The notes under the pieces were generated by a model. That model was not told the origin of the DNA and ran no database searches. It was given only the letters and a program-made list of their open reading frames with translations. Of a DNA stretch of 20,046 bases, positions 2,806 through 17,605 are shown one piece after another. The stretch covers positions 1 through 20,046 of the forward strand of contig CAZYLT010000028.1 in the NCBI GenBank assembly GCA_964648855.1, written 5' to 3'. Source of the stretch: an uncultured archaeon. GTDB lineage: Archaea > Asgardarchaeota > Thorarchaeia > Thorarchaeales > Thorarchaeaceae. How positions within the stretch are numbered: the stretch's first letter is position 1; every line of letters starts with the position of its first letter. Both the position numbers and the translations under genes were made by a program.

Positions 2806-5800
2806 TTAGCAGTATTCCTCCTCATATAATGAAAGGCCTCTGTCCTCAATTATTTTACCAACCTCGTCACTAATACACTCTAAATCCCAATTAGAGATGG
2901 TGAGGTGACCTATTCGATGGTCAATCTCTTCCCAGATGGAATTGGACACAACATCCCCCTCTCGTATATGCCGGCTGAGATCTTCAACAATGACAAAGTC
3001 ATCGTAGTTGTCCTGTTCTGCTTGTAGGGCTAATCTCACAATAATCCTAACTAGCCCTCGTCTTCCGACCTTGATGTGAGAGCATAGAAACACTAGGTTT
3101 TCATCAGTACCCCACCCATCTTTAGATTCATCAAGTTCAGGGTCGTACTCGTACTCATCGTCAAGCTCTTTCGTCAGGATTCTGCCTTGAATGGCTGCGT
3201 TAAATCGCTTATACTCTGAAACATCTGGAATCTTGGAAAGGTCAATATCGCCTAATCCTATATCTACTGGATGGCATAACCCCCTCCTACTATCAACAAG
3301 TTGCTTGCAGTCTGCGAGAAGAACGACATCGTATATATGCATAAATTTCCGCTCGAACTGCTTGAAAGGAGAGTTTTCCTCCAACTCTCTGAACTCGATT
3401 CGGAATCGCTTGAATCTGCGTCGTTCAGCAAGAAACTTTTCTTCCTGAATCATCAAGGTGCATCGTGGCCCCTCCTGCATATCTAAGAGTTCTTCGCACG
3501 TTTCAGGAAGTGAGAGAATTTCAGGATAGAAACTGGACCTCTGAACGAACGGTTTCAGAAACGACATATTGATTATAGGTATCTTGTCTTCGCTCTTGAT
3601 TTCAAGGTCGGGGTACACGACATCAGTGACATGGCTCCACACCATCCTCACCCCGTCTGCACTTGATGGGAATTTCCCAGTCCTGAAGGGAGCTCTAATG
3701 TATTCGATAACCTCTTGGGTATATTCTGTTTCAATCCCAATGTATGACTGATTTCCAGCTCTATGCATTACCCGATACACTTCTCTCTCATCGTCAATGG
3801 TGATGTAGCAGTCAACATGTTCAGATTCCACTTCAAACGAAGAGATCTCTCTCAGTAAGTCAACCACTCGTTCATCAGGGTTGTCGGGTAGCTGAACATT
3901 TTCTGGTCTTCTAATAGATAACATAACCTCCTGGGGTGGCCAGGTGATTCTGATCCAGCGAATGGGCACGAACATTCCTTTGGAAGGAAATCCATACTGT
4001 AGCATTCCAAGAATTTGCCATTCATTATCCTCCGCATCCTGCATCCACAGGATTGATTCACCAAGTACTCTCGTTAAGATAATAGGCGTACTCTCATGGT
4101 TCATTAGTGCCTTTTCAGCCTTGGATGCTAGTTCACTCGGGTCAATAACGCAGGGATGAAATCCTGTCCTCAAATGCATGCTTTCTTGATCGGTCAGAAG
4201 GGCAGCTTTCAGAGAGAAGTCTTCTTCAGAGGGCAGAAAAACCCACAGGTCTAGCGGGTAGCTCGGTTCTATACTCAAAATTGCACCAACTTGGTAGTCC
4301 ATTCTTTGGACTAACACATTGCTCGGTTGTGACTGAAGTTGTCTTGCTCGCCACTCCAAATTTGAGTACAGTGCCCTGAAATTGTACACTGATTGTACTC
4401 TGTTGCGTTCTCTTCTTACCGCCTCAAATCCCATTTGTATCGGTATCCAATAAGAAATAGAGTTCCATAGTTTTGCAGTTCTTGGATCAAATGGATGGTC
4501 GAAGTTGTTCCGAGCAGCCACATAAACGGCGAGAAATAGGTTCATTCCGTATAATTGCAGCAGTTGGGGATTCTTGGCTATCGCATCCCTTAGGTTCTTT
4601 TTATTTATGGGATTGAGATTCTGTAGCACCTCTTCTTTTTGCTCATCAATCAGTCGCCATGTCTTTGCTCGGTCATCTCTTTTGAGAATCTCAGCCCTGA
4701 TTTTTTGAAGTGCTTGAAGAAGTACATCAGATGTGCTATTTCCCGATAAAACGCGATTGCATGTCTTCATTATCTTGTGCAAATCAACGTAGAGGTCGTC
4801 GCCCGTGCTCACGGATTTTCGAAGAAATCCCGCAGCCTTCTCTAGTCTTCCAAGCTCCTTTCTTCTGATTATGGTCGAGTCTATAGTGCTGGGAGCCGTG
4901 ACGCCTGTTGGAGGTGGACGAATCGTGGTTCCCGTCACATTTTCTGGACGCCTCTGGTATGACGGCATCGTATCATAAGCCCAAGGACGACTGACAAGGT
5001 CTAGTGAATAGATGTCTTTCTGAGAATGCAATGTTATTGGCATCAACTCATTTTGGACAAGTGTCAATCGCGTTGTAAGTGGCACAGGAGAACCCGGATT
5101 TGATAACGAAGAGATTTCATTCAGGTATTCTGGCAGTTTAGATGAGTGGTCTTTGTTGCTTTCCTGTTGGAAACCCCTGTCAAGACTTGGAAGGAGAGTC
5201 ATAGCGCTTTCTTCCAACTTTTCGCAATCAGAAATCGTGGGAGGAATCATGTTGGAGAGTGTGACCAACCGCCCGTGCATTGTCTGGCTTTTTGTTTGAA
5301 GTTCTGCTAACTCGGAAGTACTCAAAGCGCCTCCCCAATCCTTCAGACCTCTGAACTTACGACCCCATGCCTTCAGACATGGTACATGGATTGCGGTCCG
5401 CCATGGCGGAATAGGGGAGGCGATTTCTTGCACAATCACTCTTATGTCAGAATGTCTAGGGGAACGCCATCCAAATATTCGTGGACTTGTAGGAAGATTC
5501 CAGATTATCTCATCTACTTGCTCCAGCCTAGGCGAGTTGTGATGAAGAGCTTTCGCGCAGCTCCTTTGATAATACGGATTCATTCTATTGTGGTTCCTGG
5601 GTGAATCAATCCAGATTATCTCAATATTCTGATTTGGAAGAACAGAGAGAATCAGTTTCTCAAGAGCTATAGGAACATCCTCCGGTTTCTTTGGCATCAT
5701 CCTTCGAAATTCAGTCCAACCGTCAATGACAAAGATTATGCCGCTTTCATCATGGAAAGAAGCTTGAATTTTTCCAATGAAGTTCCTTAATCCCTCATCA

Positions 5801-7878
5801 ACTCTGCCCGAAACAATTTTGTTGATTTCTGTTTCAAGTGGGAAGAACTCGATACTATCAAGAGTGGCTATCGAAGCGTTTCTTTTTTTCTGGGATAATT
5901 CACCTCTATGATACATTGCTTCAATGCCCATTCTCTTTTTCCGTAGATGCTTTGTGGAGAAATCTCCGAGCAAATCAAGCCAAACAACTCTATGGATGTG
6001 CTGTGAGTGTTCAAGACACTCTTGCAGATGATGGAGAAGGTGCCAGTTCTTCGAAATCCACGCCGCTGCTTTACCAGATGAAGTTGGAGAATCCACCGGC
6101 ACATATACCGTTAATAGCCGTTCATCAGAGATTCGCTTCTCGAAAGGATTATATTCAGGTAGTTGATCAGGTGGAATACATTCGGCGATTAGGTGATGTG
6201 GGCCTTCATTAGAATGCACTAACATAGCAATTCGTGGAGAATTGCTCGTCGCATTTTTCGGTTTCTTCAATCCCACTCTCTTCCAATGGTAGACATCATG
6301 GTTCAAGGTGGCGAGTTCGTCACACAACTGAGAAACCAGTATTTGTGCTGCATCAAAGACCTTCTTGTGATCTTCTTGCGAATCCAGAATCAGTACTCCT
6401 TTCCAGAGCTTTTCAGGAGCTTTAGGGTCGCTTGGCACGAGGTTTTTGTATTCCTGAACTATGTTCTGTTCATACAAGACCAACTGGTCCATCGTGTTGC
6501 CCCGAGGTAGGGAGTTCTCAAGCATATTCCATTCGTGAGCTGTGAACGGCCGCTTGCATGCAAAGAATTCGGGAAGATAGTCGTTACCGCTTCTAGATTT
6601 AGTCGAAAAAAGAGCGAAGTCAATCGAGGTCTTGGTCTTCAGTTCGATCACCATTATGGGCGTAAATACGATTCCCTTTGCGACCTCCCGTCGTACGAAG
6701 ATGACAATGTCTGAAGATCCCCCAGCAATTGGCACCTCGCTGGCAACTAGAATCGGGGACTTGGTGTCCAGAAATTTGTCGCCAGCAAAAACAATCTCTT
6801 TGAAACTGGTAGGTCTGTTGAATCCAGAGAGTAGTATTCTGTGCCACGTATTCCCCTCTCCCACGATGATTCTATTGATTTGTTCTCGTAGCTTCTCCGC
6901 ATCCCTCTCCACAACTATACCGTTGTCAATCATATCTAGGAGTTGACCCAACTTCTTTCGTTCTTCTTTGTCGGTTGTGATGTTTCGCAAATCAATTGCC
7001 TTGCTTCGGATATCGCCGATACTAAGCGAAATTGACTCAGCATCGAGCAGTTCGGTGGTACGCATTCCGCGACCAATTCGCCGACCATAGATGGTTCGAA
7101 TATCCAGAACAATCCCTCGCAGTATCTTATGTCCTTCAGTGTAATAGTCACTACGTCCAGTCTCACCGCCTGTATAGACGTAGTCCAAAAAGGGACGCAG
7201 TCGGTGGATGAGAAGGCGAATGTACCGATGCGATTCGTTTCTGGGAACACTATGGATGAAGCACTGGCGGACTAGTTCAATGATATGAGCACGAATCATG
7301 TCCACGAATTCCAGAGATGGAAGAGAAGAGTGCCTCAAGATGATTCTCGGGCATTTTGAGTTTCCTGGATACCCTGCTCTCCAGTATGATTTGATTGAAT
7401 CGTCATCCGGCACCGCATTAGCCATGCTTTCAGTGAGAACTTTCCTAGAGTCATCAGCGTATACTCGTATTTGATAGAGCAATGGGTCCGGAAATGGGTA
7501 GCGAGTGACAGCAAGGTCACGCAATCGAGCACCGGCAAAATTCAGTAGACCATTAATCGGTCCAACGGTCCCCTCTTCCCAGTTCCGAACTCTCTTGAAT
7601 TCCGTATTCCCGTATTTTCTTGTTGACCACCACAGGATCTGAAGATACATAGACCGCAGATTGTTCTCAGCAGATTGTATTGGCCATATGTCATGTTGAG
7701 TGAAGGACTGTATGTCATTGGCTCTTGTCTGTGCCTTTTTCCATAGACGCTGTGTAGCCTCTACAGCACTCCGTACCTCTTTCTGTCTAGAGGCTCTTGC
7801 TCTAGCCAGGCGAACAAGGACAGCCAATCCTGTATGGATTGAATCTGCTAGCACCTGCGCAGCATGAAAACCTCCCAT
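2806..7878 (-). CDS. Giant hypothetical protein (1690 aa): PD-(D/E)xK nuclease motif, degenerate P-loop NTPase-like region, long acidic C-terminal module
   Basis: Uninterrupted 5-kb ORF with an AGGTGG RBS and TTATAA upstream. SEVPIAGGSSD...VIELKTK...DQLVLY (6472-6738) matches the RecB-like nuclease pattern. SPTSSGK (6070-6090) and IIFVIDG (5719-5739) resemble Walker A and Walker B. Confidence 0.85.
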   Translation of the reverse strand: MGGFHAAQVLADSIHTGLAVLVRLARARASRQKEVRSAVEATQRLWKKAQTRANDIQSFTQHDIWPIQSAENNLRSMYLQILWWSTRKYGNTEFKRVRNWEEGTVGPINGLLNFAGARLRDLAVTRYPFPDPLLYQIRVYADDSRKVLTESMANAVPDDDSIKSYWRAGYPGNSKCPRIILRHSSLPSLEFVDMIRAHIIELVRQCFIHSVPRNESHRYIRLLIHRLRPFLDYVYTGGETGRSDYYTEGHKILRGIVLDIRTIYGRRIGRGMRTTELLDAESISLSIGDIRSKAIDLRNITTDKEERKKLGQLLDMIDNGIVVERDAEKLREQINRIIVGEGNTWHRILLSGFNRPTSFKEIVFAGDKFLDTKSPILVASEVPIAGGSSDIVIFVRREVAKGIVFTPIMVIELKTKTSIDFALFSTKSRSGNDYLPEFFACKRPFTAHEWNMLENSLPRGNTMDQLVLYEQNIVQEYKNLVPSDPKAPEKLWKGVLILDSQEDHKKVFDAAQILVSQLCDELATLNHDVYHWKRVGLKKPKNATSNSPRIAMLVHSNEGPHHLIAECIPPDQLPEYNPFEKRISDERLLTVYVPVDSPTSSGKAAAWISKNWHLLHHLQECLEHSQHIHRVVWLDLLGDFSTKHLRKKRMGIEAMYHRGELSQKKRNASIATLDSIEFFPLETEINKIVSGRVDEGLRNFIGKIQASFHDESGIIFVIDGWTEFRRMMPKKPEDVPIALEKLILSVLPNQNIEIIWIDSPRNHNRMNPYYQRSCAKALHHNSPRLEQVDEIIWNLPTSPRIFGWRSPRHSDIRVIVQEIASPIPPWRTAIHVPCLKAWGRKFRGLKDWGGALSTSELAELQTKSQTMHGRLVTLSNMIPPTISDCEKLEESAMTLLPSLDRGFQQESNKDHSSKLPEYLNEISSLSNPGSPVPLTTRLTLVQNELMPITLHSQKDIYSLDLVSRPWAYDTMPSYQRRPENVTGTTIRPPPTGVTAPSTIDSTIIRRKELGRLEKAAGFLRKSVSTGDDLYVDLHKIMKTCNRVLSGNSTSDVLLQALQKIRAEILKRDDRAKTWRLIDEQKEEVLQNLNPINKKNLRDAIAKNPQLLQLYGMNLFLAVYVAARNNFDHPFDPRTAKLWNSISYWIPIQMGFEAVRRERNRVQSVYNFRALYSNLEWRARQLQSQPSNVLVQRMDYQVGAILSIEPSYPLDLWVFLPSEEDFSLKAALLTDQESMHLRTGFHPCVIDPSELASKAEKALMNHESTPIILTRVLGESILWMQDAEDNEWQILGMLQYGFPSKGMFVPIRWIRITWPPQEVMLSIRRPENVQLPDNPDERVVDLLREISSFEVESEHVDCYITIDDEREVYRVMHRAGNQSYIGIETEYTQEVIEYIRAPFRTGKFPSSADGVRMVWSHVTDVVYPDLEIKSEDKIPIINMSFLKPFVQRSSFYPEILSLPETCEELLDMQEGPRCTLMIQEEKFLAERRRFKRFRIEFRELEENSPFKQFERKFMHIYDVVLLADCKQLVDSRRGLCHPVDIGLGDIDLSKIPDVSEYKRFNAAIQGRILTKELDDEYEYDPELDESKDGWGTDENLVFLCSHIKVGRRGLVRIIVRLALQAEQDNYDDFVIVEDLSRHIREGDVVSNSIWEEIDHRIGHLTISNWDLECISDEVGKIIEDRGLSLYEEEYC

Positions 7879-7910: not shown

Positions 7911-8003
7911 GTACCGGAGTGAATCAAATATATAATAAGCATTATGGGGCTTTTTTTCTTCATTTAGAAGTCTAATAGTGCTTTATTTCAATAATTGCTT
8001 AAT

Positions 8004-8112
8004 AACCTTAAATACTGCAGTACATACAATTGTACGAGTTCAAAACCCCCTGTCGGTATGGATATGGGAGTGAACTCAGCTGACCGAGACAGGTCAGAAC
8101 CTTAAATACTGC
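8004..8112 (+). repeat. 15-bp direct repeat AACCTTAAATACTGC (8004-8018 and 8098-8112), each copy containing a BRE/TATA-like box
   Basis: Exact match read directly from the sequence; 79 bp between the copies. Confidence 0.85.
8036..8097 (+). ncRNA. Candidate structured small RNA or 5' leader upstream of tnpB
   Basis: Stem GAGTTCA (8036-8042)/TGAACTC (8071-8077) encloses an inner stem, followed by hairpin CTGACC-GAGACA-GGTCAG (8080-8097). It begins 28 nt after the first TTAAATA box, where an archaeal start site is expected. Confidence 0.4.
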
Positions 8113-8118
8113 TAGGCG

Positions 8119-9792
8119 TTGAAGATGAACAAAACCGACACCGTGAACATTGCTGTTAAGATCCCCATCAACACTGAAGTAATGACTGATAGGTCGTTGC
8201 GGAGGTTGAGGCAAATCACGGGAAGGGACAGCAGGATCATCCGTGCGAACCTTGGAATCATCGAGGACAATGAGAAGGACCTTCTTCAAGGGGGGCCTAG
8301 GAAACGCATTGAGGAGAATAGGCTGCGAGAAATGACACTAACTGCCTTGAGAGTGAAGAGTGGCTACAAGCAGAGGTTGACTGTTCCCCATGACTTGAAG
8401 GAACGTTTCCCACGTACTTCAACCAATGAGCTTGACCAGTGTCGCAAGACTGCAGTCATGTTGTACGATGCATATCTGACATTGCGACAGAGGAATCCAA
8501 GGATGAGGAGACCGTGCAAGACAAATCCTGACGGCAAAATTCCCCGTTGGGTTTTTCTTAAGTGCTTCAGGTTGAAACATTCACCCACTACGATATCTCG
8601 GTGGTGGCTTGATTTACGAGACGCTCTCGATTCTGTTCCAGAAGGCAGACCCACACACGACCGATTGAGACTTCCCCTGAAAGTCACTCCATTCCATGAG
8701 GATCAACTCAATAGGGGAGAAGTGAAGGCCGTCCAGATCTTCTGTGATAGGCATGGCAAGTGGTGGACTGCCTTCGCCGTGACACTATTGGTAGCAGTGC
8801 ACGATTTGAAGGATGACTTACCCTTTGCCATACTTGGTATCGATCTCGGGGTGAAGAAAGCAGTCTGTAGTGTTCTCCTCACAGAGCACAAAGTGTCCGA
8901 AACAAGATACTTCATCCAAAAGGAAAAGCGGGACTCAATGATGCAGTATGATGCCAGAGTTGCCGACCTACAGCAGGCAATAGAGAAGAAGAGAATCAGT
9001 GGAGATGAGGGCAGGCTTCTTATGAAGCTCAAGAGTTTCAGAACAAAACGGGAAGATGTATCCAAGACCCATGATCGTATTCTGGTCAGCAACCTAATCT
9101 CATACATAGGGGAACTCGACCAGAAGTGCAATCTCTTTGTTGCCATCGGGAAGCTCAAGGGGATTCGTTATGCTGCAAGAAGAGGCAACTACCGAGGTAA
9201 TCGCTACCGTGGCATGGTACATAGATGGTCTTACTTCCGGATCACAGAAGCCTTGAAGCACGGACTCGCACAACTTGGCTGGCCGGTTGAAGGAGGCAAG
9301 GCACGAATCCGAGCGGTGCCTGAACAATGGACCTCAATCAAATGCTGGAAGTGTGGACAGAAGGGATATCGCCCGAAGCAGTCCCTCTTTGTCTGCCACA
9401 CGTGTGGCTTTAGAACCAACGCCGACCGAAATGGTGCGCTTAACATAGCGCGCCGACTCATTACGCTCATTCCTTTACTACAGAATGAGACCGGACTAGG
9501 GCGGTGGGTGTCCCCCGAGCGGGCCCCAGCCCCGAAGGCTGTAAGGAAGACTCGTTCTTCTAAGCAGAAGTCCTCACTCAACAAGATGGAAGTTTCGTCA
9601 ACCTCCGTTGAGTCCGCGGCCGTTCATCATGTCCAATTGGATGTTCTCAGATTCAGTGATGGCTCTGAGATGGATGATTATGACCCTGCCGTGGCAAAAG
9701 CTGTGGAAACACTTCCTGCGGCCAGAAGTGACGAGCTGGCGAAATCGCAGAAGACAGAAGCCAGGTCTGATGGAGGGACGGTGTCCCGATGA
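8119..9792 (+). CDS. tnpB: TnpB-family RNA-guided endonuclease with rearranged RuvC-II and C-terminal extension (557 aa from TTG 8119; ATG 8125 or GTG 8143 also possible)
   Basis: RuvC-I ILGIDLG (D242); RuvC-II strand LFVAIGKL with G344 at the usual Glu position; WSY motif; VPEQWTS (E402); Zn finger CWKC...CHTC; RuvC-III NADRNGALNI (D436). Confidence 0.93.
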   Translation: MKMNKTDTVNIAVKIPINTEVMTDRSLRRLRQITGRDSRIIRANLGIIEDNEKDLLQGGPRKRIEENRLREMTLTALRVKSGYKQRLTVPHDLKERFPRTSTNELDQCRKTAVMLYDAYLTLRQRNPRMRRPCKTNPDGKIPRWVFLKCFRLKHSPTTISRWWLDLRDALDSVPEGRPTHDRLRLPLKVTPFHEDQLNRGEVKAVQIFCDRHGKWWTAFAVTLLVAVHDLKDDLPFAILGIDLGVKKAVCSVLLTEHKVSETRYFIQKEKRDSMMQYDARVADLQQAIEKKRISGDEGRLLMKLKSFRTKREDVSKTHDRILVSNLISYIGELDQKCNLFVAIGKLKGIRYAARRGNYRGNRYRGMVHRWSYFRITEALKHGLAQLGWPVEGGKARIRAVPEQWTSIKCWKCGQKGYRPKQSLFVCHTCGFRTNADRNGALNIARRLITLIPLLQNETGLGRWVSPERAPAPKAVRKTRSSKQKSSLNKMEVSSTSVESAAVHHVQLDVLRFSDGSEMDDYDPAVAKAVETLPAARSDELAKSQKTEARSDGGTVSR

Positions 9793-10070
9793 TTCCAGAC
9801 AAAGCCCATGCTGCCTCATGCCCACCCAGTATGAGATCGGTGGCGACACCAGGTATGGGAAGGGTGGAACACAGAAGTTTCTTGCAGATGACGTTCACTC
9901 ACATTCTAGGAGACAGGTCAGGGCGCGGGAATCGAACCAAATGTATTGTGAAGAAATGGAGAATTCAATATACTGCAGCAAGGCGAGAGGACGTAGGGAA
10001 CACAATGCGATTGCGGAACCCACATGATTTTCTTATTCATGAGGAGGATATCTTTCTTAATTCTATAAAG
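9766..10070 (+). ncRNA. Putative omegaRNA (reRNA) scaffold plus guide; boundaries approximate
   Basis: Dense stems around the tnpB stop: CCCATGCT/GGTATGGG (9805-9859), CTCATGC/GTATGAG (9815-9835) and GGTG-GCGA-CACC with a GNRA loop (9839-9850). Possible pseudoknot CCACCC (9822-9827)/GGGTGG (9862-9867). Terminal hairpin at 10020-10044. TnpB omegaRNAs are known to lie at this position. Confidence 0.65.
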
Positions 10071-10077
10071 GAACAGA

Positions 10078-10173
10078 TGGGGCCCGGGGCGGGAGTTGAA
10101 CCCGCGTCAGGGGAGGTCTGCCGCCAAGAATGGCGTCCACAATCCCCTATGCTACCGTTACACCACCCAGGCC
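10078..10173 (-). tRNA. tRNA-His(GUG) with encoded G-1, C73 and CCA, and a 21-nt intron at 37/38 (10116-10136)
   Basis: Full cloverleaf: acceptor GCCTGGG/CCCGGGC, anticodon stem GGGGA/TCCCC, anticodon 10138-10140, T-arm GCGGG-TTCAACT-CCCGC. BHB motif: TTGT pairs with GCAG, two 3-nt bulges, intron hairpin CGCCA-TTCT-TGGCG. Confidence 0.97.
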
Positions 10174-10276: not shown

Positions 10277-11926
10277 TTGAAGACTTCCATCCAGAAAAAA
10301 GAACTCGGCGCGTACTACACAGATCCCCGAGTGGCGGAGTTCTTGGTTCGCTGGGCGGTGAGAACCCCCAATGACAGAATACTCGACCCTTCTTTTGGAG
10401 AGGGTGTCTTTCTGGAAGCGGCTCTAAATGTAATGGGAGAATCTAAGGAGGTTGGGGAGCAGATTTATGGTGTCGAAATAGATGACTCGGAATATGATAG
10501 GGCGATAGAGAAATTCTCTGAATGGATTCCAGAAGAAAATCTCATTCACTCCGATTTCTTTGAAGTGATAGGGGGCGAGAATCATGGAACACTCGCTGAA
10601 ACTCAAGTGCCCGCTGTAGATGCGGTAGTTGGAAATCCTCCTTACATAAGGTATCACAGATGGAAAGGGAAGACTCGGAAAAGAGCGCAGGAAAAGGCCG
10701 AAACTCTAGGCGTTGAAATCAACGGGTTGAGCTCATCGTGGGCTCCCTTTGTGGTGTATTCCACTTCATTCCTTAAAAAGGGTGGACGCCTGGCCATGGT
10801 ATTACCCGCCGAAATCATGCATGCCTTCTACGCGAAACCGGTATTGGAGTACTTACATCAGACATTCAAGTTAGTGCGTCTGATTGCATTTCGCGAGAAG
10901 CTTTTCAGCCAGTTGTCAGAAGACACCTTGCTGATTCTCTGTGATGAAAAGGGTTGTGGGCCTTCTGAGATGTTCTTGACAGAGCTGCAAAACGTCTCAA
11001 AGATAGACGAGGAAATACCGACTGGGACCTCAGTTGAGTCGAAGTCCGTATTGGCTGGCGAGTCAAAGCTGATTGAGTATCTTCTGCCTGACAAGATCCG
11101 CCAGCTCTATTCGAGAATAAAGCAGGATGCACGTTCAGTCAAGCTCGGCGACATTGCTGATGTCGGTATTGGATACGTCACAGGGAATAATGATTTCTTC
11201 CACCTCTCACGATCTGAAGTAGAAGCCTTAGGGATCCCTGAAGAAGCGCTTTCAAGATGCCTTAGAAATAGTAGGCACATCCAAGGCCTTGTTGTAACAG
11301 ATGATGATTGGGAAAAGCTGAGAAACAAGGGTGAGGCCGTATTCCTGCTCAATCTGGCAGGTCTCGAGCCTCTGGCTGATGCAATTGAGGAGTATCTAAG
11401 AACTGGAGAAGAACGTGGTGTCCATCAAGGGTACAAGTGTAGAAATCGCAAGCCTTGGTATGTAGTTCCTCATGTCTACAAGTCTGATGGACTTCTCACC
11501 TATATGAGTGGAAAACGGTCAAGGCTCGTAGTCAATAAGGCTGGCATCTATGTTCCGAATACTTTGCATACTGTAAGACTTAGAGAACCGCATAATGACA
11601 TTATGCTTCAGCTTTCTCTTAGTTGGCTCAGCAGTTTCACAAGACTTAGTGTTGAAATAGAGGGCCGGAGCTTAGGGGGAGGTATGTTAAAACTTGAACC
11701 AAGTGAAGCTCAGAGGGTTCTGGTGACACTGCCGGAGCTGGCACCAAAGCCATTGAATAACACTACAAACAAAATAGACCATCTTCTTCGTGACAATAAA
11801 TGGACTGAAGCCATGTTAGTCGCAGACCATGCGGTTCTTCGGCAAACCCTGGGATTGGATGATGAAGAAATACAATTGCTAAGGCAAGGGGCTAAGGAGC
11901 TTCGAGAGAAGCGATATTCTCGTTAA
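10277..11926 (+). CDS. N6-adenine DNA methyltransferase, gamma class (type II restriction-modification)
   Basis: GAYYTD, motif I LDPSFGEGVF preceding motif IV VGNPPY, LKKGGRLAMVLP, and a C-terminal TRD with KCRNRKPWY and EGRSLGGGMLKLEP. Confidence 0.92.
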   Translation: MKTSIQKKELGAYYTDPRVAEFLVRWAVRTPNDRILDPSFGEGVFLEAALNVMGESKEVGEQIYGVEIDDSEYDRAIEKFSEWIPEENLIHSDFFEVIGGENHGTLAETQVPAVDAVVGNPPYIRYHRWKGKTRKRAQEKAETLGVEINGLSSSWAPFVVYSTSFLKKGGRLAMVLPAEIMHAFYAKPVLEYLHQTFKLVRLIAFREKLFSQLSEDTLLILCDEKGCGPSEMFLTELQNVSKIDEEIPTGTSVESKSVLAGESKLIEYLLPDKIRQLYSRIKQDARSVKLGDIADVGIGYVTGNNDFFHLSRSEVEALGIPEEALSRCLRNSRHIQGLVVTDDDWEKLRNKGEAVFLLNLAGLEPLADAIEEYLRTGEERGVHQGYKCRNRKPWYVVPHVYKSDGLLTYMSGKRSRLVVNKAGIYVPNTLHTVRLREPHNDIMLQLSLSWLSSFTRLSVEIEGRSLGGGMLKLEPSEAQRVLVTLPELAPKPLNNTTNKIDHLLRDNKWTEAMLVADHAVLRQTLGLDDEEIQLLRQGAKELREKRYSR

Positions 11927-11948
11927 TCTCTGGTTCCGAGTGTTGTGA

Positions 11949-12827
11949 TTATTCATACTTTTCGTCATATTGCGCCGCAATTGTTTCTAGTGCGTTTTCG
12001 TACCGGACAGCTTCATATTTTTTATCTTTGAAAACCAAGGGGTCTTCCAATCTCGGGCGGTCAATATTGTCAAGATGACAAAATTGAATCGCGAATCCAT
12101 CGTAACCACCACCGCTTAACTGCTTAATAGGCACGTCTTGGATAATAATGTCTAGTGTCTTCTCGGGTTCGTCGGGCTTATTCCTAGATATCATTGTTTC
12201 GGGTAATGCTGGGTCTTCAACGAATTCTCTTATCTTCTCGTTGCCCGTACCAATCATTCCCTCCAATTCTTTGAGATTGAATTTCGATTCAGAACAGAGA
12301 TGCGATAATACGTCCCGGGCTCTGATAAATGTTTCATAATTCAAGAACTTATCTGCAGTTCCGATAATAAAAGTCCCTACAAGAAGCACATGTCTGTGTT
12401 GGCCATCTCTCACTGCTTCGGCTAGATCAGCGAGAATTCTAGTTCTATTGTATACATTTCTATGAGCAGTTATCAGGCTCTTGTTTTCCATGATCAAACG
12501 AATGTCCTTCGGTTCGGACTCTCGGATTCGTTGAAATCCCTGATTCTTTGGATCGATACTAGTCTGTTGTGATGAATCTTCTCTTGTTCCCAGAACCAAG
12601 TCTAGGACATGTTGCCTTCCGCCGAGGCCAAGCCGATGGTTTACCTTGTAACAGATAGTTCCAGCATCAACATCAGACTTGAAGATTGAACTCACATGAT
12701 ACAAATCCCTGAGGAATTCCTTGCTAAGGTAATCAGAATGAAATCCGGTTCTTGGATGGTGTATTCTCTCTCTTTCTAGATAGCTGACCAGTCGCTCAAA
12801 TGCGGTCCTATTTAGTCCGATATTCAA
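11949..12827 (-). CDS. Putative type II restriction endonuclease (PD-(D/E)xK fold)
   Basis: HVLDLVLG...IRLIMENKS catalytic-type motif; convergent with the methyltransferase, 22 bp between the stop codons. Confidence 0.7.
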   Translation of the reverse strand: MNIGLNRTAFERLVSYLERERIHHPRTGFHSDYLSKEFLRDLYHVSSIFKSDVDAGTICYKVNHRLGLGGRQHVLDLVLGTREDSSQQTSIDPKNQGFQRIRESEPKDIRLIMENKSLITAHRNVYNRTRILADLAEAVRDGQHRHVLLVGTFIIGTADKFLNYETFIRARDVLSHLCSESKFNLKELEGMIGTGNEKIREFVEDPALPETMISRNKPDEPEKTLDIIIQDVPIKQLSGGGYDGFAIQFCHLDNIDRPRLEDPLVFKDKKYEAVRYENALETIAAQYDEKYE

Positions 12828-13040: not shown

Positions 13041-14261
13041 TTGGAAACACTAAGCAAAGGTAGGAAGGCGCCAGTATTGGTTGACTTGGAAAAGGGAGAA
13101 GGTATATGGAATTTCATAGAAATTGATGACAGTAAAATAGAAACAGACATCAGCTCCAACCCTCTAAAGTATATCGATAAACTTACCGAAAAATTGGATG
13201 GGGCTGATTTGGAAACAGTCGGCAAAGGAGTCATATCAGGCAACAAACTAAGAATTGCTTCAGGCGTTGAGGAGATATATAACCAAAGTCCGGACAGATT
13301 CATGACATTGGTTTGCATTATGGAGTTTGTAAATCGAAAACCCAAGGCGGTCTATGAAATAGCGGAGGAGGCATTCGCCAAAAAGGGGCAACCGAATATA
13401 AGCGACAATGGGCCAATCGCCCATGCATATAAATTATATGAGAAAGACCCGAAACTGCTTTTCGATGTCTATCTGAGAAATCAAGTGATCAGAAAAGGAT
13501 TTGATAGCTACAAACTGATAAGCAAGAAAAAGTCGTTCCCGCAACACCCTCTGCAGAAAATAGATGAGAATAGAATCAATACCTTTCTCAAAGATGTAGA
13601 CTCGCAGTTCAATGATGGTCTAGAAAGCAAATGCTGGCATGTTTCACATTATGGAAGTACAACTGAAGTGTACCTTAGAAGACAAGATGAACCGATTCTA
13701 CTGAAGAAACTTCTAAGAAATATTCGCCAAACCATGGCAAGTTCGACAATTCTACGCTTTGACAAACACGGCCGGAATGTAGACCTTTGGTCAGAGAAGC
13801 ATTCGGTCGCGGAAAAGCTACTTAATCATCTTTCTAAGAAGATTTTTGAGAAAGATGCAAAATATGAGCCAGAAGTATACAGAAACAGTAAAGCCGATGT
13901 TAAAAATTGGCTTGGAGCAATAATGCATGGTCAGGATAGTGACATGAAACTACTCAAAATAAAGAGGAGAAATGCTCCAATCAAAGGCAGTCCAAAAATA
14001 ACCATAGAATCATCAAGGTCGATTCATGTTTCATTGAACTCGTTGAAACAAGCTGGTATTGATCTTAGCAAAGATTGCGCTACTGAAACAGAGGAGATTA
14101 GCATTGAGTACAAATCAACCAAGTATTTATTTGGATTAAGAATCAGCAATGGGTCCATTGTTGTTTATAGCAAGAGACAAAGAGGGACAAAGAAAGCAAT
14201 GGAATCGATTATCACATATTTGAAAAAAGAATATAGCATCAAGATATCACTGAGCAACTGA
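13041..14261 (+). CDS. Hypothetical protein (406 aa, Lys-rich), first gene of a two-gene operon
   Basis: Long ORF in AT-rich DNA, 5 bp upstream of the next gene; no catalytic motif recognised. Confidence 0.8.
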   Translation: METLSKGRKAPVLVDLEKGEGIWNFIEIDDSKIETDISSNPLKYIDKLTEKLDGADLETVGKGVISGNKLRIASGVEEIYNQSPDRFMTLVCIMEFVNRKPKAVYEIAEEAFAKKGQPNISDNGPIAHAYKLYEKDPKLLFDVYLRNQVIRKGFDSYKLISKKKSFPQHPLQKIDENRINTFLKDVDSQFNDGLESKCWHVSHYGSTTEVYLRRQDEPILLKKLLRNIRQTMASSTILRFDKHGRNVDLWSEKHSVAEKLLNHLSKKIFEKDAKYEPEVYRNSKADVKNWLGAIMHGQDSDMKLLKIKRRNAPIKGSPKITIESSRSIHVSLNSLKQAGIDLSKDCATETEEISIEYKSTKYLFGLRISNGSIVVYSKRQRGTKKAMESIITYLKKEYSIKISLSN

Positions 14262-14266
14262 TCATA

Positions 14267-15394
14267 TTGCTACCAAATGGCTATATTGTTTATCCTGATA
14301 ATGATTATGCGCTAGAGAGATGCAAAGTTCTTTGCAGGTTGGGATTAGCTGATGCCTTGGAACAAGAAGTTGTCAGTTGTGTAAATCATAGGGATTGGGA
14401 TTATGATACCCTTTCTACTGAAGAAAAGCGATGTTCTTCATGGATATTCGTCAGTTCATTTGAAGAGGGTTCGGCGGTATGTGAAGAATGTGGACGAAAA
14501 ATAAATCGGAAAGAGAAGAAGAACAAATACAAGGCTTGGGAGGTAAGCCTAAATCTTGATAAAATCTCAAAATACATTGTGGAGAGGCTGAAACCGGAGG
14601 TAGACCACATAGAGGAGAGAGAATACTCATGGGAAATTCTACTTAATCGAAGGCATTCATTTCTTGTACTTATTGGATATATGCCAATACAGTTCAATCA
14701 GGATTATTTGTTTGGAAACGTAGGGAATACTATTGGATTGGCAATTTCTGACTATGAATATAACCAGTTCATTCAATCCTTTCCGTTACAACCAGCCATA
14801 ACCCTGCAGAATCTGATTCAAGATCCTAAATCAGTCATTCGGCTGATTAACGCATCTTTCACTGAACAGCCCAGAAAACTAGAGGTGGATTCATGCAAAG
14901 ATCTTCTGCTTTCATTTGCTAGCTCGTTCAACTCATCAGGCTCTGATTTCGAAAATCTCTGCCTTGAACTCGAAAGGAATATTCGCGACAATAAACAAGG
15001 AATGGAGCAAATTCTCAACCAGCTCAAATTGAAGCAAGCGATATCATACAGAGTCCTGCATCTAGGTGGCTCTGGAATGCCAGATTTGCTGCGGATACCG
15101 CTCTTCCCCTATTTCAGAGATTACTTTACTCATAGCGGTGTTATAGAGTCCAAGCAGTATCTGCAGAGCAAACTTAGGCCGACACATCTCGGACAAGCAA
15201 TACGACATGCAAGGCATTATGGCCAGAAGAGAATTCTCATCTACGCTCTGACAGAGGATGTTGCTCCAAGTGTGTGGAGTGATGTCCTTAGCGTCAGAGA
15301 AGCTGATGGGGGATTTCTCAATATCGTGATGGATACTACATTTATTGCATACTTGATAGTGGCTTTTGATTTGGTTGAAACTATGTTGACCTAA
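14267..15394 (+). CDS. Zn-ribbon plus C-terminal Mrr-like restriction endonuclease domain protein (375 aa)
   Basis: Cys cluster SCVNH...RCS...VCEECG; C-terminal DFENLC...LGGSGMPDLL...VIESKQY...HLGQ fits the Mrr/type IV pattern FE...G..PD...ExK. Confidence 0.78.
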   Translation: MLPNGYIVYPDNDYALERCKVLCRLGLADALEQEVVSCVNHRDWDYDTLSTEEKRCSSWIFVSSFEEGSAVCEECGRKINRKEKKNKYKAWEVSLNLDKISKYIVERLKPEVDHIEEREYSWEILLNRRHSFLVLIGYMPIQFNQDYLFGNVGNTIGLAISDYEYNQFIQSFPLQPAITLQNLIQDPKSVIRLINASFTEQPRKLEVDSCKDLLLSFASSFNSSGSDFENLCLELERNIRDNKQGMEQILNQLKLKQAISYRVLHLGGSGMPDLLRIPLFPYFRDYFTHSGVIESKQYLQSKLRPTHLGQAIRHARHYGQKRILIYALTEDVAPSVWSDVLSVREADGGFLNIVMDTTFIAYLIVAFDLVETMLT

Positions 15395-15716: not shown

Positions 15717-16090
15717 GAAAGCAACACCTTACAAATAGAACAAAGAATTGGAGGAATTTAGTTGTTTTCCTGCAGAAGCTGTCTTCTCGTATGCTCTTGA
15801 TACAATTATAATTAGCATAAGGCACATCGCCCGCCCCGGGCCCTTTACTTCAATATATATTTCATTAACATTTCACTTCGGGCCATAAAGAGGACTTGCA
15901 CTCCGAACTTCACTCATCCAATACTTTCAGAATTTATTTCTAACGGTTCAATGTGATATCTGCTGGTCGAGCCAAATGTAGTATCTTTATCCAAGCCAGA
16001 GTGGCTTATATACGAGGAATGAGTGAAAGTCACCCCCATAAGAAACGACCATCCCTTAATTAGAGAAAAAGGAATGTGAGGGCGAAGTAA

Positions 16091-17605
16091 TTGGCAACGC
16101 AGAAGAAGATGGATTATCAACTTGGGGCCATATTGAGTATCGAGTCGAATTACCCACTGGATATGTGGATTGTTCTTCCTTCTCAAAGGGGGACATCACT
16201 AAAGGCGGCTCTACTCTCAGAACAAGAGAGCGTCTATTTGAGAGCTGGGTTTCATCGCTGCGTCATTGACCCCAATAAGCTGGCAGATATGGCAAGAGAG
16301 GCAATAAGACATCACCAGAGAGTGCCCCTTGCTTTATCAGAAGTACAGCGGGAAACAATCCTTTGGATGCAGGATGAGGATGATGCAGAGTGGCAAGTGA
16401 TGGGGTTGCTGCAGTACGGCCGTCCTCCCCGGGGCATGGTTGCACCGATTCGCTGGATTAGACTCAGTCGGCACCATCCAGACTTCATAGTATCTGAATC
16501 ACGTCCTAAGCACGTTACAATCCCCCCGGACTTCGATGAACAGGTGGACGAGCTGCTCAATGAGATTGCTTCTTATGAGGTGGAAACTGAAGAAGTTGAC
16601 TGTTACATCACCATTAACAACAAGAGAGACGTGTATCAAGTCATCCACAGAAGTGGAGATGCATCATGCAGAGGCATAGAGACCTCCTACACACAGGAGG
16701 TCATCGAGTATCTCAGATCTCCGTTCGGGACTGGGACATTTCCCTCAAATGAGGATGGGACTACCTTAGTGTGGGATCATCTAAAAGATGTGGAGTATCC
16801 CGACGTTGAGATTGGAACCAAAGATAATCCCCGGACGGTCAATATGTCCTTTCTGAAGCCATTTGTTCATAGGTCCACCTTCTATCCGGATGTCTTTTTA
16901 TTACCCGAAACTTGCAGGGGCCTGCTGGATATGAGAGAGGGGGAGGAATGCACCTTAATGATCCGAGAAGACAAATCTCTTGTCGAACATCGCGTATTCG
17001 ATAGATTCCGGGTAGAGTTCAAGGGGCTGGAAGGCGATTCTTCTCTCAAACGGTTGGAGCAGGTGACTATGCACATATTCGATGTCGCTCTTCTAGCCGA
17101 GTGCAAGCAGCTTGTCGATACCAGGGCAGGAGGTTATCATCCGGTGGAGATAGAATTGGGAGAGATTGATGTCTCCCGACTTCCGCATCTCTCAGAGTAT
17201 GAACGGCTGAACTCAATCATTGAAGAAACCATCCTTATGGCTGAGCTTGACGATGACTGTGAGTATGAGAGGGGACCCGTTTCTGATGAGGATGCGTGGG
17301 GCGTGGATGAGGAGTTGGTTTTCCTAAGCTCTCATATTAAGGTCGGAAGAAGAGGTCTCGTCACAATCATTGCTAGATTGGCACTAGAATCAGATGAGGA
17401 CAATTATGATGACATTGTCATCGTTGAGAATCTGAGCCAGCATGTACGAGAGGGCGATGTTGTGTCCAATTCGATCTGGGAAGAGATAGACCATCGACTA
17501 GGACATCTTGACATCTCTAGTGTGGAGATGGACCGCGTTTATGAAGAAGTCGAGGAGATAATAGAAAAGAGAGGTCTCTCGCTGTCAGATGAGGAGTTTT
17601 TCTAG
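16091..17605 (+). CDS. Stand-alone paralog of the C-terminal 498 aa of the 1690-aa protein (ATG 16109 possible); may be a 5'-truncated gene
   Basis: 16109-17605 (+) and 4302-2806 (-) are both 1497 nt from MDYQ to the stop codon. 41 of the first 60 aa are identical, with shared blocks to the end (e.g. REGDVVSNSIWEEIDHR). Confidence 0.88.
   Translation: MATQKKMDYQLGAILSIESNYPLDMWIVLPSQRGTSLKAALLSEQESVYLRAGFHRCVIDPNKLADMAREAIRHHQRVPLALSEVQRETILWMQDEDDAEWQVMGLLQYGRPPRGMVAPIRWIRLSRHHPDFIVSESRPKHVTIPPDFDEQVDELLNEIASYEVETEEVDCYITINNKRDVYQVIHRSGDASCRGIETSYTQEVIEYLRSPFGTGTFPSNEDGTTLVWDHLKDVEYPDVEIGTKDNPRTVNMSFLKPFVHRSTFYPDVFLLPETCRGLLDMREGEECTLMIREDKSLVEHRVFDRFRVEFKGLEGDSSLKRLEQVTMHIFDVALLAECKQLVDTRAGGYHPVEIELGEIDVSRLPHLSEYERLNSIIEETILMAELDDDCEYERGPVSDEDAWGVDEELVFLSSHIKVGRRGLVTIIARLALESDEDNYDDIVIVENLSQHVREGDVVSNSIWEEIDHRLGHLDISSVEMDRVYEEVEEIIEKRGLSLSDEEFF

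Follow-up and report, generated by a model that had tools for sequence, protein, structure and literature searches.

The occurrence in an Asgard archaeon of a tnpB gene whose RuvC-II glutamate has been replaced by glycine raises the question of whether the encoded protein is still a nuclease, whether it has a bearing on the origin of the Fanzors, and what kind of element carries it. In this study, we examined these points for one contig (20,046 nt in all, hereafter the window) and compared it with related loci from other genomes. The host belongs to the same GTDB family as named Thorarchaeota genomes, so that the contig could be assigned to an Asgard host, a taxonomic check that had been suggested in the initial annotation.

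The reading frame (8119/8125-9792, plus strand) is open and intact. The ATG at 8125 is a more likely start than the TTG at 8119 and gives a protein of 555 aa (8125..9792); an SD-like motif lies upstream of it at 8114-8118, and a database protein (P0002) is identical to the 555-aa product. The protein has a Cas12f-like fold, with a disordered tail of about 90 aa at the C-terminal end, encoded by DNA that overlaps the omega-RNA. All key residues (numbered from the TTG at 8119) were found exactly at the positions proposed initially: the RuvC triad is composed of D242 (codon at 8842), E402 (GAA, 9322-9324) and D436 (codon at 9424), the glycine is G344 (GGG, 9148-9150), and a C4 zinc finger is formed by C409/C412/C426/C429. 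These residues, from D242 to D436, were unchanged in all 120 homologs (52-59% identity). In the alignment, G344 matches the canonical RuvC-II Glu of AsCas12f, and E402 sits six residues ahead of the first CxxC of the zinc finger, which is the published position of the alternative glutamate (Ealt). Almost all distant relatives of full length had the same arrangement, among them archaeal TnpBs of 350-430 aa, and the two relatives that had a canonical RuvC-II Glu both lacked Ealt. In the AlphaFold model (pLDDT 75, pTM 0.70), D242 is located in the first RuvC strand, G344 terminates the strand that normally bears the RuvC-II Glu, and E402 directly follows the next beta strand, before the zinc finger. 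This topology fits the geometry described for rearranged (RIIr) TnpB clades (PMC10691335).

Because the catalytic residues are unchanged in the 120 homologs, the protein is, as far as can be judged from the alignment, most likely an active nuclease of a known kind rather than a dead TldR. [quoted passage not shown] The archaeal rearranged TvTnpB, which has the same Gly/Glu arrangement, cuts DNA, and so does ApmFNuc, in which the Glu equivalent to E402 is essential (PMC10530073). The protein would thus cleave DNA with E402 standing in for the lost RuvC-II Glu, like TvTnpB and Fanzors, and we consider it very probable that it does so. The initial proposal of a rearranged, active TnpB therefore appears to hold.

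The proposed link with Fanzors fared less well. Glycine plus a downstream Glu had been taken as the Fanzor signature, but this combination is insufficient alone: Fanzors and pro-Fanzors are distinguished by DPG at RuvC-I together with the alternative Glu, a separate D-phi-G clade carries the same alternative Glu, and the proposed Fanzor ancestors are cyanobacterial IS607 TnpBs (Yoon et al., PMC10711439). The RuvC-I motif of our family was DLG in 120 of 120 close homologs, which fits the D-phi-G pattern, and DPG was found in none of the 120 close and none of the 73 distant homologs. The family profile matched Cas12f-type proteins with up to 57 bits versus 21 bits for Fanzor2; likewise, in structural comparison Cas12f (Z 21.8) ranked above ISDra2 TnpB (19.5) and Fanzor2 (ApmFz2, 17.7), and Fanzor1 was absent among the 50 best structural matches. 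In a RuvC tree of 77 sequences (with five outgroup rows and no Fanzor1), the query fell inside a 40-member clade (support 99/96) and the DPG set, 23 proteins of viral and metagenomic contigs, stood apart (100/100). Finally, the partner is an aCas1 protein and not an IS607 TnpA, and the host is a thorarchaeon, neither cyanobacterial nor eukaryotic. The idea that the Asgard TnpB is an archaeal precursor or close sister of Fanzors can draw on the Gly at RuvC-II plus Ealt, on the Asgard host, on the unresolved base of the tree, and on the fact that forcing the query and the DPG proteins together, at a cost of 40 log units, was only marginally rejected (AU p 0.0495). With DLG throughout, Cas12f nearer by both profile and fold, and separate branches in the best tree, it is nevertheless very improbable, and the sequence comparisons indicate that this Asgard TnpB family has no special tie to Fanzor origins. 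Assignment to Cas12f itself (type V-F CRISPR) was also considered and rejected, as there was no CRISPR array among the repeats around the gene and the protein scored below the NCBIfam cut-off.

The neighbor of tnpB identified the element. A giant protein of 1690 aa (2806..7878, minus strand) is encoded divergently from tnpB. Searches with Pfam, PHROGs, PADLOC, PDB sequences and Foldseek did not identify it, and an Atlas feature search gave a weak match (0.75); it was recognized solely by a wide structural search, in which a model of its first 330 residues was compared with 48,161 chains. The top 12 places were all taken by Cas1 or casposase chains, with Z 9.0-12.8 and rmsd 3.7-4.2 over 148-197 residues; the highest Z, 12.8, came with an rmsd of 4.1 over 178 residues, and the next unrelated match reached 6.3. 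The Cas1 C-terminal catalytic-domain fold corresponds to residues 1-250 (7129-7878, minus strand). Residues E71, H183 and D193 were invariant among homologs and, judged by their motifs, are probably the counterparts of the Cas1 triad, a candidate integrase triad; the similarity covers the C-terminal catalytic domain only, and the absence of the Cas1 N-terminal beta domain counts against an integrase. A PD-(D/E)xK-like motif was read by eye at residues 380-416 (6631-6741, minus strand), after the Cas1-like domain, and no family match was obtained for the remaining ~1250 residues. Homologs of this aCas1 protein were found upstream of tnpB in up to 47 of 80 loci, at a distance of 271-305 nt in 23 of the 24 loci measured. 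By phmmer, no canonical Cas1 was detected near tnpB in any of the 80 loci, and the two canonical cas1 genes of the source genome are located elsewhere, with cas2. A relic of a second giant aCas1 gene (16079..17605, plus strand), 58% identical to the first, retains its C-terminal third. Because a divergent neighbor with a Cas1 fold is accompanied by the published motif GTTCACTCA at 9893-9901 (plus strand, inside the omega-RNA scaffold), the locus is the catalogued Asgard aCas1-TnpB element (PMC10691335).

The omega-RNA could be delimited by its conservation. In the last ~105 codons of tnpB, which in the model encode a mostly disordered tail, synonymous codon identity was 0.75-0.80, compared with 0.44 in the rest of the gene. 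Conservation runs past the tnpB stop and ends sharply at 9921, and the scaffold region was accordingly placed at 9475..9921 (plus strand, 5' end approximate), overlapping those codons. In minor contigs of two runs, position 9921 was joined to another flank, and a third form carried a variant of the sequence behind 9921. Because conservation ends and the population joints fall exactly at 9921, the 3' guide most likely begins at 9922 (Y, the variable guide or right flank, 9922..9941, plus strand) rather than in the variable stretch that precedes the motif, where the passages of PMC10691335 on these elements proposed it. Here, this stretch seems to fold into a stem and to pair with the leader; the scaffold ends about 20 nt later. 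The 3' region folded no better than shuffled sequences.

A second guide-like unit was found upstream of tnpB. A TATA-containing 15-mer (X1, 8004..8018, plus strand), the presumed tnpB promoter P1, is directly preceded by a TAM-like TTAAT (7999..8003, plus strand) and followed by a structured 5' leader (8036..8097, plus strand; fold z -4.3). The leader comprises a long hairpin (8036-8077), in which an octamer (8068-8075) is complementary to 9893-9900, and a terminal hairpin (8080-8097) whose last bases, GGTCAG, also close the omega-RNA scaffold; in fact, the last 12 nt of the leader and of the scaffold are the same. No consensus structure was recovered for the long hairpin. In guide position directly behind the leader stands an exact 15-nt copy of X1 (X2, 8098..8112, plus strand), 94 nt downstream of the original. 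Of 59 loci, 48 had an X1/X2 match of at least 11 nt, compared with 51 of the 3422 cross-locus pairs (1.5%), although these loci are kin and the counts overstate their independence. The copy is locus-specific (44 different 12-mers) and the spacing is 92-105 nt, with a single locus at 118. The match begins right after the scaffold motif, spans 12-15 nt and fades at positions 13-15. Upstream of X1, TT(A/C)AT was present in 45 of 55 loci, compared with just 3 of 87 generic TATA-like sites in the source genome, and those three probably stem from the other three copies of the element.

The leader could also be linked to the omega-RNA. Its octamer and the following bases can pair with the omega-RNA, compensatory changes on the two sides were seen in L011, L023/L025 and L012/L029, and the mean duplex energy was -22.6 for a locus's own partners, against -20.0 for foreign partners and -19.9 for antisense strands. 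Because the guide position of the leader copies the promoter of tnpB itself, we infer that TnpB represses its own gene. The leader RNA would pair with the omega-RNA and load into TnpB as a second, crRNA-like guide; a match of 12-15 nt would let the protein bind, but not cut, P1, and this binding would give negative feedback on tnpB expression. We regard it as probable that the leader RNA is such a second guide and represses P1, and the locus as a whole suggests RNA-guided autorepression, in which an enzyme switches off its own expression.

X1 and X2 might instead be a tandem promoter, or a 15-bp target-site duplication of Cas1 type around a 79-bp leader unit with the octamers as terminal inverted repeats. 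A TATA box is present in both copies, and X2 might itself serve as a further promoter; the match is at most 15 nt long, which is the length of the duplication made by the A. boonei casposase; and flanking repeats are claimed for the published loci in the passages of PMC10691335 concerned. However, the unit occupies the same position in all loci although the proteins have diverged to ~55%, and yet the copies are identical within a locus. Moreover, mismatches are polarized to the TAM-distal end: no locus retained a prefix of 4-8 nt, whereas by our estimate about 15 such loci would be expected if a 15-mer decayed evenly. Nor is the 5-mer ahead of X1 a feature of promoters in general. No flanking repeat around both aCas1 and tnpB was found here, and because the inverted octamers enclose tnpB only, with aCas1 outside, their reading as aCas1 terminal inverted repeats was rejected. 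Thus, a tandem promoter or duplication seems quite unlikely, and a guide in the leader is preferred.

With regard to the 3' guides, 10 of 53 matched tRNA genes over 13-19 nt, compared with no match over 11 nt in 159 shuffles. TT(A/C)AT was not found at the tRNA sites matched, and for the guide at 9922, no target within two mismatches was found in the assembly, from which several tRNAs are missing, so that homing by cleavage is no more than a possibility. Over its first 17 nt, the guide at 9922 agrees with the antisense T-arm of the neighboring tRNA-His at 14 positions. This tRNA-His(GUG) gene (10078..10172, minus strand), intact and containing an intron, adjoins the element. A second tRNA-His is represented by its 5' part, which breaks off at the T stem and is truncated by the start of the contig (1..61, plus strand), and a 14-nt tRNA-His 3' end lies at 15830..15843 (plus strand), to which an omega-RNA end was joined at 15843 in minor contigs of two runs. 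This tRNA-His appears to be split, its 5' part and 3' end being about 15.8 kb apart on the plus strand, with the intact intron-containing copy in opposite orientation inside the island; the 21-nt intron is missing in a relative. One contig of run X4 fuses the tRNA-His 5' piece (window position 55) to 3' tnpB (9316), which would put the omega-RNA alone behind a tRNA promoter. In two other loci (L097:2814 and 10467; L093:3782 and 11058), the guide copies the 5' end of tRNA-Asp and an intact tRNA-Asp lies at the opposite end; in L097, the match is interrupted by an intron after the fourth base of the guide. The 3' guide was also examined for a direct target-site duplication at the left end, which was rejected as a general feature: the matches to tRNA-Asp are direct in L097 but inverted in L093, L113 and L132, and there is none here.

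Between the tRNA-His pieces, the island carries several other genes. Positions 604-2789 encode TcmP (three-Cys-motif partner) and a radical SAM protein, which weakly match the candidate defense pairs PDC-M41/M30. A type II adenine methyltransferase gene at 10277-12827 converges with a gene for a 292-aa protein of no assigned function, probably the restriction enzyme of this methyltransferase. Two further genes of no assigned function lie at 13041-15394; the first matches phrog_21102, and the product of the second has a zinc ribbon and a C-terminus that may be nuclease-like.

Taken together, the data point to a two-gene selfish element of Thorarchaeota with divergent aCas1 and tnpB genes. A casposase targets the 3' end of a tRNA (PMC5137440), and the giant aCas1 would, like casposases, be an integrase favoring tRNA genes. 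If aCas1 integrates there, the omega-RNA guide would be the flank of the insertion site, a pair of assumptions that we favor slightly. No target-site duplication was found flanking this copy, and no left end of the element could be recognized, which counts against this view. Alternatively, TnpB may be a binding-only, TldR-like regulator, either nuclease-dead or restricted to RNA processing, in which both guides (12-19 nt) serve for binding. Such binding could include repression or a CAST-like recruitment of aCas1 to tRNA genes. Both guide types indeed give short matches only, no TAM occurs at the tRNA targets, the linkage to an integrase-like gene is constant, and the TnpB fold is related to both Cas12f and Cas12k. 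On the other hand, the three acidic residues are unchanged not only in the 120 homologs but also in deeper relatives, and the same arrangement cuts DNA in TvTnpB and ApmFNuc. We therefore regard the binding-only regulator as doubtful, and we are similarly reserved about its extension to repression or aCas1 recruitment. An equally tentative possibility is a split-guide TnpB, in which a crRNA-like leader unit represses the promoter and also uses the omega-RNA as its tracr-like scaffold, combined with an RNA-guided, Cas1-based transposon whose 3' guide steers the integrase to tRNA genes. On the whole, the best explanation is probably a selfish element with an active TnpB, an aCas1 integrase and autorepression through the leader.

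The element is widespread in its host group. Named homologs and loci were nearly all from Thorarchaeota, and 50 of the 87 genomes available for the class carried the TnpB family, frequently as several diverged copies per genome. The source genome has four diverged copies and more than 10 further 3' remnants. Near-identical 3' remnants, which contain the omega-RNA region and no full gene, were located on contigs C1, C2, C6, C8, C11, C20, C31, C34, C43, C45, C48 and C56 of genome G000; their flanks differ, CTAGA comes next in many, and many lie at contig ends. They may represent a recently mobile non-autonomous form. In a divergent subfamily (L077-L080 and G000:C4), the scaffold motif is followed by one shared conserved sequence and no variable guide, and a different boundary or target may be used there.

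The catalytic rearrangement is thus of a known type, occurs in an element already catalogued, and reveals little about how Fanzors originated. More is at stake in the leader. If the leader guide works, this TnpB would naturally operate with two RNAs, in parallel to the transition from an omega-RNA to a tracrRNA and a crRNA. The leader guide would also be a case of RNA-guided self-repression by a transposon TnpB, of which we found no description in a search of the literature on TnpB autoregulation and on Thorarchaeota TnpB that covered few of the subscription papers; known self-control in IS605 involves the Arc protein and no guide (10.64898/2026.09.24.754181). Neither a leader guide nor tRNA-matching flanks appear in the passages of PMC10691335 on Cas1H-Asgard elements. 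In addition, our results provide testable parameters for this element, namely TT(A/C)AT as the candidate TAM, 9921 as the end of the scaffold, and E71/H183/D193 as the candidate integrase triad.

Several known systems resemble parts of this locus. Fanzor1, Fanzor2 and pro-Fanzors have the overall TnpB fold (Z 17.7 for ApmFz2) and probably the Ealt catalytic geometry in common with the query, whereas the query has DLG instead of DPG, no IS607 and a separate branch in the best tree. The D-phi-G plus Ealt clade (TnpB2/RIIr), which includes TvTnpB of Thermoplasma volcanium, shares with it the Gly at RuvC-II, the Glu six residues before the zinc finger, the NAD of RuvC-III and archaeal members, according to the corresponding sections of PMC10530073, PMC10691335 and PMC10711439; in contrast to these TnpBs, the query is larger (555 aa, with an RNA-encoding tail), has an aCas1 partner, and no Y1 TnpA was seen. 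The aCas1-TnpBs Cas1H-Asgard-1 and -2 (Altae-Tran et al. 2023) share the Asgard host, the adjacent divergent Cas1 homolog and GTTCACTCA downstream of tnpB after a variable stretch; within the passages of PMC10691335 on these elements, this stretch is the proposed guide, whereas here the guide more likely starts at 9922. Casposons also combine a Cas1-fold integrase with an association with tRNA genes (PMC5137440). In contrast to casposons, no PolB was seen among the ORFs of the window and no terminal inverted repeats or target-site duplication were found around the whole element, and the Cas1 part is truncated and fused to ~1400 residues without assigned function.

For the leader guide, the closest parallels are found among CRISPR effectors. 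The Cas9 long-form tracrRNA reportedly represses by means of a short guide that is partly complementary to the promoter of the effector itself. CreR-guided autorepression of Cas types I-B, I-E and V-A, which covers Cas12a, is based on a short partial guide to the own promoter, on which Cas12a is thereby held without cleavage, as would be the case for TnpB here (10.1101/2023.03.10.532045). However, the CreR systems and the Cas9 long-form tracrRNA belong to CRISPR loci with repeats, whereas the effector in the present locus is the TnpB of a transposon, with its putative guide in the leader of its own gene.
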